Virus record (IMG/VR): IMGVR_UViG_3300032167_002310
Length of the DNA stretch: 64,000 bases
Strand: one strand, 5' to 3'
From: a virus
Lineage: Duplodnaviria; Heunggongvirae; Uroviricota; Caudoviricetes
Positions 41,689 to 41,846 of this stretch are shown here, in pieces. The notes below the pieces were generated by a model, which worked only from the letters and a program-made list of their open reading frames with translations, did no database searches and was not told the origin of the DNA. The first letter of the stretch is position 1, and each line of letters starts with the position of its first letter. The translations under genes and the position numbers were made by a program.

Positions 41689-41846
41689 TTGGTCGGTAGC
41701 CTTGGACTCGAACCAAGGACCACAGAACTCACTAACTTACGCACCTTGCCTTGCCGTGTACTCGAGTTGGCCGCACCGATGTTACGCAAGGTTTTGGAAC
41801 TGTTTATTCAGATACCCTACACCGAATCACTACCGATGTTTGTAAA
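41689..41846 (-). ncRNA. over-long tRNA-like RNA (about 150 nt) with perfect 7-bp acceptor stem, canonical T-arm and CCA but about 75 extra internal nt
   Basis: 5' TCGGTAG...3' CTACCGA-CCA pair across 150 nt; T-arm CCTTGGTTCGAGTCCAAGG; internal region does not form standard D/anticodon arms. Confidence 0.35.

Follow-up and report, generated by a model that had tools for sequence, protein, structure and literature searches.

A structurally conserved tRNA-like RNA with an oversized arm in the tRNA array of a large uncultivated phage

We describe an unusual tRNA-like RNA encoded in a 64,000-nucleotide stretch of DNA from a Caudoviricetes virus (IMG/VR record IMGVR_UViG_3300032167_002310; hereafter the window), itself a segment of a large uncultivated phage-like genome to which no deposited phage is closely related. 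The RNA is 146 nt long, lies on the minus strand (41835→41690) and sits within an array of tRNA genes, between tRNA-Gly(GCC) and tRNA-Lys(UUU). It has sharp boundaries and a structure kept under purifying selection, it is distributed among phages in the manner of a cassette, and it fails to match known RNA families. Our leading, though tentative, reading is that the element is a gene for a stable, non-decoding, tRNA-shaped RNA of the array, matured via the tRNA pathway; we infer its processing, its stability, the absence of decoding and a role in binding. Oversized tRNA-like genes in phage tRNA arrays are known already, namely rnaC of phage T4 and the "introns" of megaphages. What is new is a family outside Rfam that differs from the reported introns by its aberrant frame and by an arm that is obligatory and structurally conserved.

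The tRNA arrays of huge phages contain oversized tRNA-like genes that are overlooked by standard annotation. The T4 species 1 RNA has been without an assigned function for decades, and the megaphage tRNA "introns" are without a known splicing mechanism. With exact termini, a covariation-backed structure, invariant loops and selection on its surplus arm, the present element is a well-delimited test case, which helps to decide whether such genes are spliced tRNAs or a separate class of tRNA mimics in phages that carry Ro60-like, vault-like and RNA-repair proteins. A covariance model of the family would correct the annotation of these phage genomes.

Boundaries, fold and conservation of the RNA

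Relatives were found with pattern scans, both exact and aware of structure, and then with a covariance model (R1). Copies of the element occur in one phage on three IMG/VR contigs (L001-L003, identical to L039, L041 and L042), on six metagenome contigs (L084-L087, L089 and L090) and on a 42-kb contig of a phage nearly identical to that of the window (L091), whose copy is identical to the window copy. Pattern-scan matches on L088, on L095 and in nine GTDB genomes were rejected by the covariance model and are attributed to chance. There are six distinct sequences, all of equal length and without indels, the other five differing from the window copy at 8-14 positions.

Across these six variants from 11 loci, the block of homology stops exactly at the RNA's own termini. 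RNA positions (p) are given as 41837 minus the coordinate, such that the RNA spans p2-p147. The original prediction, made from the letters of the window, had joined the ends by a perfect 7-bp pairing of TCGGTAG (41836-41830) with CTACCGA (41699-41693). These strands do pair in the window, but one register off, with the T41836-A41693 pair falling outside the RNA. Two variants have A at position p1 (41836) without any change at the supposed partner, A144, and in L084 and L089 p1 is the terminal A of the CCA of the upstream tRNA-Lys. Because p1 is unconserved and belongs to that CCA in L084 and L089, the RNA is taken to start one base later, at C41835. The acceptor stem pairs C41835..U41829 with G41700..G41694, ends in a U.G pair and abuts the 5-bp T stem; A41693 and CCA follow. 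An RNA of about 150 nt with about 75 extra nucleotides had been proposed for 41689-41846. The surplus stands, at about 67-75 nt in excess of tRNA size, and the interval was too wide, since 11 nt upstream and 1 nt downstream of the 146-nt RNA are unconserved. The T arm (CCUUGG-UUCGAGU-CCAAGG) is canonical and CCA is encoded at 41692-41690, both as predicted. The parts of the RNA are as follows.

41690-41835, minus strand: whole tRNA-like RNA, delimited by the ends of the conserved block in six variants and 11 loci.
41829-41835, minus strand: acceptor stem, 5' strand CGGUAGU (p2-8); pairs 4-141 and 7-138 both take the states G-C, G.U and A-U.
41694-41700, minus strand: acceptor stem, 3' strand GCUACCG (p137-143); covariation at 4-141 and 7-138, abutting the 5-bp T stem as in a tRNA.
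41690-41693, minus strand: discriminator A and genome-encoded CCA (p144-147), invariant in all variants.
41806-41827, minus strand: D arm with stem p11-15/p26-30, possibly also 10-31, and a 10-nt loop, UGUAGGGUAU; G14.U27 alternates with A14-U27, and RNAalifold agrees.
41800-41804, minus strand: anticodon-stem equivalent, 5' strand AACAG (p33-37); covariation at 37-112, 33-116 and 34-115.
41721-41725, minus strand: anticodon-stem equivalent, 3' strand CUGUG (p112-116), with the same three covarying pairs.
41793-41799, minus strand: anticodon-loop-like heptamer UUCCAAA (p38-44), within an internal loop; 6/7 match to the tRNA-Trp loop of this phage group, CUCCAAA.
41726-41792, minus strand: 67-nt surplus segment (p45-111), the distal part of the long arm in constrained and consensus folds.
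41785-41790, minus strand: inner helix, 5' strand CUUGCG (p47-52); 51-97 occurs as C-G, U.G and U-A, and 50-98 as G.U and A-U.
41736-41741, minus strand: inner helix, 3' strand CGUAAG (p96-101); covariation at 51-97 and 50-98.
41726-41735, minus strand: 3' side of the large internal loop, UUAGUGAGUU (p102-111), invariant in six variants and absent from the search patterns.
41760-41767, minus strand: apical self-complementary octamer, ACUCGAGU (p70-77); four symmetric substitutions preserve the palindrome, which is suggestive only.
41701-41717, minus strand: T arm (p120-136), 5-bp stem CUUGG/CCAAG with canonical loop UUCGAGU, invariant.

The tRNA frame thus comprises an acceptor stem, a D arm with a GG-containing loop, a T arm and CCA. 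It had been thought that the interior did not fold into normal D and anticodon arms. This is not borne out, as a D stem of 5-6 bp and a covarying 5-bp stem at the anticodon-stem position are both present (the change A10→U in L089 disrupts the optional D-arm pair 10-31); the oddity is what the latter stem encloses. It closes off 74 nt rather than a 7-nt loop, and is separated from the T stem by 3 nt. From this stem the long arm, an irregular hairpin of about 80 nt, first passes a large internal loop of invariant sequence, in which UUCCAAAAC faces UUAGUGAGUU, and then two more helices before reaching an apical domain of about 30 nt; its consensus fold includes a 2x2 loop, a 3-bp helix with one bulged A and a 4x4 loop. 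The invariance of UUCCAAA is a biased observation, as the heptamer belonged to the search pattern.

The six variants fit one common ungapped structure, in which 97.6% of the cells are paired, compared to 31-45% when the partners are slid by 1-3 columns. Both-sided changes were seen at four pairs, located in the acceptor stem, the anticodon-stem equivalent and the inner helix, versus 0-1 in the slid controls, and the observed covariation values were reached by 7 of 500 column shuffles. The feature thus exceeds chance by a wide margin. RNAalifold, run on the ungapped alignment without being supplied the structure, returned the same architecture. The minimum free energy fold is no more stable than that of shuffled sequence (z = -0.81); thermodynamics alone is therefore uninformative, and the case rests on the comparison of copies. 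The pairs that vary, and their states, are listed here.

Pair 4-141, acceptor stem: G-C, G.U, A-U.
Pair 7-138, acceptor stem: G-C, G.U, A-U.
Pair 14-27, D stem: G.U, A-U.
Pair 37-112, anticodon-stem equivalent: G-C, A-U (A.C in L087).
Pair 33-116, anticodon-stem equivalent: A.G, A-U.
Pair 34-115, anticodon-stem equivalent: A-U, G.U.
Pair 51-97, inner helix: C-G, U.G, U-A.
Pair 50-98, inner helix: G.U, A-U.

Conservation of the element stands out from its surroundings. Every copy is set in a tRNA array, near tRNA genes for Lys, Met, Cys and Gly, in at least three unrelated flank contexts whose boundaries coincide with the RNA's own ends. The full 147-nt block shows 94.6% identity between window and L039, whereas the ordinary tRNAs common to the two phages are 51-83% identical, the Ro60-like proteins encoded near the array 66%, and the 300 nt on either side about 50%, which equals random sequence. 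Variable positions make up 11/79 of the frame (11/59 once positions fixed by the search pattern are set aside) and 11/67 of the surplus segment. As these frequencies are alike, the surplus segment is under selection as strong as that on the frame.

These data bear upon the notion, raised in the original prediction, that the locus is a pseudogene, in this case a decaying, functionless tRNA gene disrupted by a small inserted element. Every tRNA detector fails at the locus, the frame is aberrant, and the tRNA arrays of these phages turn over fast and contain homing endonuclease genes, all as would be expected of decay. Against this, four helices are kept by compensatory changes, six variants are free of indels, identity far exceeds that of functional tRNAs in these genomes, and neither the window nor the loci contain the insert anywhere else. 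A decaying pseudogene is therefore ruled out in our judgement, or very nearly so, since the surplus segment is selected like the frame and its distal helices covary; we regard it as the least probable of the readings considered.

The distribution of the element is patchy. It is present in L091, whose Ro60-like protein is 97% identical to that of the window, and absent from L092 (89%), L004 (88%) and the other 70-odd loci. A blastn and covariance-model search of 80 loci related via the Ro60-like protein recovered the element in one other lineage only, L039/L041/L042; the remaining contigs with closer homologues of the Ro60-like protein stop at the tRNA array, some 220 nt upstream of its gene. 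L120 displays an empty site, in which a block of about 200 nt matching window 41837-42045 is followed by a T-run and the TTGATT...TATAAT promoter of a small Cys-rich open reading frame (ORF), and the window element occupies the position of this T-run and promoter. The small downstream ORF has 54 homologues, and the element was absent from 6/6 contigs fetched for them; as the ORF occurs without the element in these six contigs, the two appear functionally unlinked. No protein gene was found to co-occur with the element, and no binding partner emerged, which weighs against the mimic favoured here.

Two conserved non-coding blocks flank the element in some phages. The upstream block (window 41837-42045, minus strand; L120 ~2200-2400), of about 200 nt, is also found in L085, L087 and L090; it contains a hairpin, CGGCU...AGCCG, followed by ACCUAAGUCC, ends in a T-run in L120, and may be another small RNA with a terminator. 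In two phages (L039 5848-5960 and L087) a block with the sequence TTATCCCGCGGAATGCGGCGGCGATGAAGC... lies 3' of the element and may be a further structured RNA.

A putative stable tRNA mimic or, less probably, an intron-containing pre-tRNA

No call was made at the locus by ARAGORN in standard mode, by Rfam at gathering score or by Rfam at E≤10 (900-nt slice), and the intron mode of ARAGORN was empty at default. Hence the normal tRNA of 75-90 nt that the original prediction had weighed as the contrary outcome was called by neither program, and the Infernal comparison with Rfam that it had proposed gave no match to Y RNA, transfer-messenger RNA (tmRNA) or tRNA models at E≤10. At the 80% threshold the intron mode of ARAGORN produced two incompatible models, a Thr-AGT tRNA with a 70-nt intron and a Val-AAC tRNA with a 72-nt intron. 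The 7-bp acceptor, the discriminator, CCA and the 5-bp T stem with a 7-nt UUCRANY loop are as in a canonical tRNA; the 5-bp stem at the anticodon position, though present, does not enclose the usual 7 nt, and the variable loop, at 3 nt, is below the canonical minimum of 4 nt.

In the mechanism that we propose, the RNA would be co-transcribed with the neighbouring tRNAs of the array and cut by RNase P 5' of C41835, because it presents a standard minihelix of a 7-bp acceptor and a 5-bp T arm with A73 and CCA. In two relatives this cleavage would also free the CCA end of the preceding tRNA-Lys, and the encoded CCA would form the 3' end of the RNA. The product would be an L-shaped, 146-nt mimic whose anticodon stem is prolonged into the irregular hairpin, presumably with no free anticodon loop, because UUCCAAA lies in the invariant internal loop. 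This rod would be the working part, most likely as a protein-binding platform and possibly as a dimerisation module via its apical loop, while the tRNA end may confer stability and access to tRNA-handling enzymes.

The closest parallel that we can point to is in phage T4, whose tRNA cluster ends in two annotated small stable RNAs, rnaC (species 1) and rnaD, adjacent to the homing endonuclease gene segB. T4 rnaC (139 nt; NC_000866 70908-71046) is an expressed late RNA with no assigned function. Both it and the element lie in a phage tRNA cluster, are about 140 nt long and have paired termini and a canonical T arm (CCGGG-UUCGAAU-CCCGG in rnaC); rnaC carries about 100 nt of non-tRNA hairpins between its termini and T arm, and is missed by the Rfam tRNA model. 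T4 rnaC is processed by RNase P. It differs from the element in lacking an encoded CCA, in the weakness of its acceptor stem and in having two interior hairpins instead of a single long arm at the anticodon position. R1 scores rnaC at 14.7 bits, equal to ordinary T4 tRNAs, and the two RNAs are not homologous. The element resembles rnaC in anatomy and kind only, as a putative tRNA-processed, non-tRNA passenger of a phage tRNA array, and rnaC-like stable RNAs are a loose class rather than a curated family.

The main competitor, which we consider possible although the less probable of the two, is a pre-tRNA(CCA) interrupted at 37/38 or 38/39 by a structured intron about 67 nt long. An intron-containing tRNA had been among the candidates originally proposed. 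Removal of p45-111 would leave a 79-nt tRNA, by means of a phage or host endonuclease and a phage RNA ligase or by self-processing, and the insert would be one of the "enigmatic" tRNA introns of huge phages. UUCCAAA, with U33 and A37 and directly after a covarying 5-bp stem at the anticodon-stem position, is what would be expected of such a precursor, and six of its seven bases agree with the Trp loop of the group. Functional-looking tRNA genes of related phages do accommodate inserts (at 31/32, 32/33 or in the loop), and removal of these inserts gives canonical tRNAs. Proteins that could heal and seal RNA ends (RNA-ligase-like, Thg1-like, metallophosphoesterase and RlaP) are encoded in the window. 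Highly conserved tRNA introns, termed "enigmatic" and without a known mechanism, have been reported in Lak megaphages (Devoto et al. 2019). The heptamer, the inserts accommodated elsewhere and the conserved megaphage introns count against the favoured reading, as does the size of the family, with six variants of about 90-95% identity whose covariation derives from few events and is matched by 7/500 shuffles.

Several results favour the mimic over an intron. None of nine in-silico deletions of the insert gave a tRNA(CCA) in ARAGORN, whereas three control expanded tRNAs (L050, L018 and L032) became canonical at default. The insert is as conserved as the frame, and UUAGUGAGUU is invariant even though it was unused in the search; selection on the distal insert is needless for an intron spliced by proteins. 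The frame itself is odd, with a 3-nt variable loop and with position 8 and the D-arm geometry off. Its identity elements are unlike those of tRNA-Trp: it has C1-G72 and A73, compared to G73 in 8/8 and A1-U72 in 7/8 of the group's Trp tRNAs. Moreover, a canonical tRNA-Trp is already encoded by the phage (45457-45532). No bulge-helix-bulge is present in the consensus fold, no group I intron or small ribozyme was matched at the locus in Rfam at E≤10, and a scan of 30 window proteins revealed no EndA-type (tRNA_int_endo) Pfam domain. Insert-less alleles were found neither in more than 80 related loci nor in IMG/VR or the GTDB genomes. Comparison of the exon halves and nine spliced versions with 625 tRNAs (window and loci) gave no intron-less homologue, the best matches being due to T-arm and acceptor similarity only. 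We rank the intron second because of the failed in-silico splicing, the odd frame, the non-Trp identity, the lack of a bulge-helix-bulge, ribozyme or insert-less allele, and the distal selection. Judging by the UUCCAAA heptamer, the ancestor of the RNA may have been a tRNA with anticodon CCA that received an insertion at 37/38 or 38/39.

Insert-bearing tRNA genes of the group provide the comparison.

L005 7296-7447: insert of about 77 nt inside the CUCU...AAA loop.
L032 4093-4241: insert-bearing tRNA gene, one of the three splicing controls.
L050 6215-6350: insert after position 32; an insert-less orthologue has an identical anticodon arm.
L018 8885-9017: insert between 31 and 32, as also in L006.

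Inserts of other tRNA genes in these phages are present or absent between orthologues. Like the element, the Lak and huge-phage introns (Devoto et al. 2019) reside in oversized genes of large arrays and are conserved inserts at or near the anticodon loop. They differ in that their exons form a canonical tRNA and insert-less alleles exist, whereas the element has an aberrant frame, no such allele was found for it, and the helices of its distal insert covary.

A variant of the intron, which we think quite improbable, would make the 67-nt arm a compact, protein-independent tRNA intron or processing ribozyme, perhaps dimeric via its apical loop, that releases a tRNA(CCA) of non-Trp identity. If true, a self-excising arm would explain selection over the whole insert and would provide a mechanism for megaphage tRNA introns. 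The rest of the probability falls to something outside the readings set out in this report.

Known classes were excluded one by one. The element and tmRNA have in common an acceptor/T-arm domain with CCA and a long helix at the place of the anticodon arm. However, tmRNA carries G3.U70, the alanine identity pair, and the third acceptor pair of the element is G-C or A-U; ARAGORN -m was empty even at the 80% threshold, and the RNA, at only 146 nt, is without a tag reading frame or pseudoknots. A group I intron had correctly been judged too large to fit, as the insert is 67 nt compared to a P1-P9 core of about 200 nt or more, with no RF00028 match at E≤10. A protein-spliced bulge-helix-bulge intron of the archaeal/eukaryal type was rejected, as the consensus fold lacks a pair of 3-nt bulges 4 bp apart. 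Inspection showed neither a plausible frame for a tag peptide nor a loop presenting UCA, CUA or UUA as anticodon, which disposes of tag-peptide, selenocysteine-tRNA and suppressor readings. No complement of the invariant loops, as an antisense or kissing target would be, was found in the window save for the gene's own opposite strand.

At the apical octamer (p70-77) the window variant reads ACUCGAGU and L084 reads UUCCGGAU, while the remaining four variants read AUCCGGAU. The states ACUCGAGU and AUCCGGAU are four symmetric substitutions apart and both are self-complementary, and a loop-loop dimer is favoured by cofolding. An 8-nt palindrome is expected about 0.5 times by chance per 147 nt, the change between states is one evolutionary event only, and an alternative cis hairpin (72-74/81-83) explains one of the four octamer changes. 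Symmetric changes can arise without selection by template switching in palindromic DNA. For these four reasons the palindrome was downgraded to a lead, and is no more than suggestive as a dimerisation signal.

The neighbouring Ro60-like protein and its probable RNA partner

The protein encoded at 38620-40179 (minus strand), a DUF2828/DUF7788 protein, has the Ro60 fold, although no sequence match to solved Ro60 structures was found. That a YrlA-like RNA might be bound by this neighbour had been part of the original prediction; the Ro60-like nature of the neighbour is borne out by its fold. As an alternative to the mimic, the element could be a Y-RNA-type partner of the Ro60-like protein, possibly together with a vault-protein homologue, with a protein-binding site on its long arm and a tRNA end that recruits tRNA enzymes or nucleases. 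We consider this improbable. Ro60 proteins can bind more than one Y RNA, so a role as second partner is conceivable; nothing specific speaks in its favour.

YrlA has a Ro-binding stem made up of its 5' and 3' ends, a closed hairpin as its "acceptor", a GNCGAAN0-1G motif and a gene adjoining that of Ro60 (Chen et al. 2014); the YrlA of Mycobacterium smegmatis is a substrate of RNase P and receives CCA. YrlA and the element are alike as tRNA mimics with T and D arms in genomes that encode a Ro60-type protein, but the features by which YrlA is defined are missing from the element. Its topology is the reverse, with an open acceptor that ends in CCA and a closed long arm; the motif is absent, and no Y-RNA model of Rfam matches at E≤10. 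It lies 1.5 kb from the Ro60-like gene, with two tRNA genes and an ORF between them, and L004 and L092 keep the Ro60-like gene without the element.

A better candidate lies beside the gene itself, where a conserved, covarying, YrlA-like RNA is found directly upstream of the Ro60-like gene in all four close relatives. In the window this RNA occupies ~40205-40370 (minus strand), within the 430-nt gap upstream of the gene, and is preceded by TTGATT-N17-TATAAT at ~40410-40378, which resembles a promoter. Its two ends pair to close a long stem, and it also forms two hairpins that covary, one of them similar to a T arm (GUUGG-UUCAUAU-CCAAC). The T-arm-like stem covaries in four phages (window, L091, L092 and L004) as GUUGG/CCAAC, GGUGG/CCACC, GCCGG/CCGGU and GCUGG/CCAGU, and compensatory change is seen at 10/34 pairs of the RNA. 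It has a YrlA-like architecture and no Rfam match, and is probably the true Y-RNA partner, of an undescribed Y-RNA type. A homologue of major vault protein (MVP), with MVP shoulder and vault repeat domains, is encoded at 21602-24094 (minus strand) of the window, on the same strand as the Ro60-fold gene, and the vault and Ro60-fold genes are adjacent in L093 (482-4663), which hints at a vault/Ro-like ribonucleoprotein module in these phages.

The tRNA array and further RNA elements

Proteins encoded in the window include a gyrase, endolysins, a sigma-70 factor, PhoH, a Sir2 protein and a NAMPT-like protein. RNA-related proteins are dense, with the MVP homologue joined by Thg1-like, RNA-ligase-like, RNase T, RlaP, SLOG and DUF2828/DUF7788 proteins, and a metallophosphoesterase is also encoded. 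ARAGORN called 37 tRNA genes in the window at 41237-56574, every one on the minus strand, and one further "tRNA" of 117 nt (45943-46059) was added by Rfam. CCA is generally encoded by the array tRNAs, as the 3' ends called by ARAGORN lie 3 nt past those of Rfam for most genes and the printed sequences end in CCA.

Genes of a PD-(D/E)XK homing-endonuclease family (Pfam PDDEXK_5) were observed within tRNA arrays at window 44710-45165 (minus strand), L092 5664-6651 and L116 1678-2427. The window gene occupies the place of tRNA-Thr(UGU) in the near-identical phage L091, and such genes could be a route for the exchange of cassettes between phages. Small basic or Cys-rich ORFs of 54-105 aa with strong ribosome-binding sites are scattered among the tRNA genes, and often start a few bases past a CCA. 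A Pfam match was obtained for 0/4 of those scanned, with 43392-43574 outside that scan.

41503-41673, minus strand: small ORF.
42769-43083, minus strand: small ORF.
43392-43574, minus strand: small ORF.
43571-43888, minus strand: small ORF.
45753-45926, minus strand: small ORF.

Beside the array, at 58049-63699 (minus strand), a YcaO cyclodehydratase and two proteins with weak, sub-threshold radical-SAM matches form a cluster resembling those for ribosomally synthesised and post-translationally modified peptides or for thioamidation.

A second family of expanded tRNAs, of 117-123 nt, was noted at window 45940-46059 (minus strand), L004 2191-2311, L016 2201-2323, L044 2533-2649, L068 797-915 and L080 2821-2942. 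Its frame is normal; the top 3 bp of the anticodon stem covary between CGU/ACG and CCG/CGG and enclose an insert of about 50 nt, which has a GGUC...GACC hairpin and a conserved (C/U)(A/U)GCAAUCUUU motif. No consistent anticodon emerged for the family. Just upstream of the window member, positions 46128-46177 (minus strand) match 50 nt of the L11-binding GTPase-associated-centre region of 23S rRNA (model positions 1096-1145; 18.7 bits, E=9e-4) with the structure preserved, and may be an rRNA-fragment mimic. A ROOL RNA (313 bits) lies in the tRNA array of L004 at 1532-2182, directly before a 118-nt expanded tRNA. One relative encodes a phage tmRNA (tag ARYQYQMAA; L016 5585-5884), and another has a partial OLE-like match (L041 4981-5070). 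Suppressor tRNAs, of which none was called in the window itself, occur among the 625 tRNAs of window and loci, with 45 amber suppressors (CUA; e.g. L005 7221-7291, L003 4633-4707 and L004 1109-1181) and one ochre suppressor (UUA), and some relatives may use recoded stop codons.

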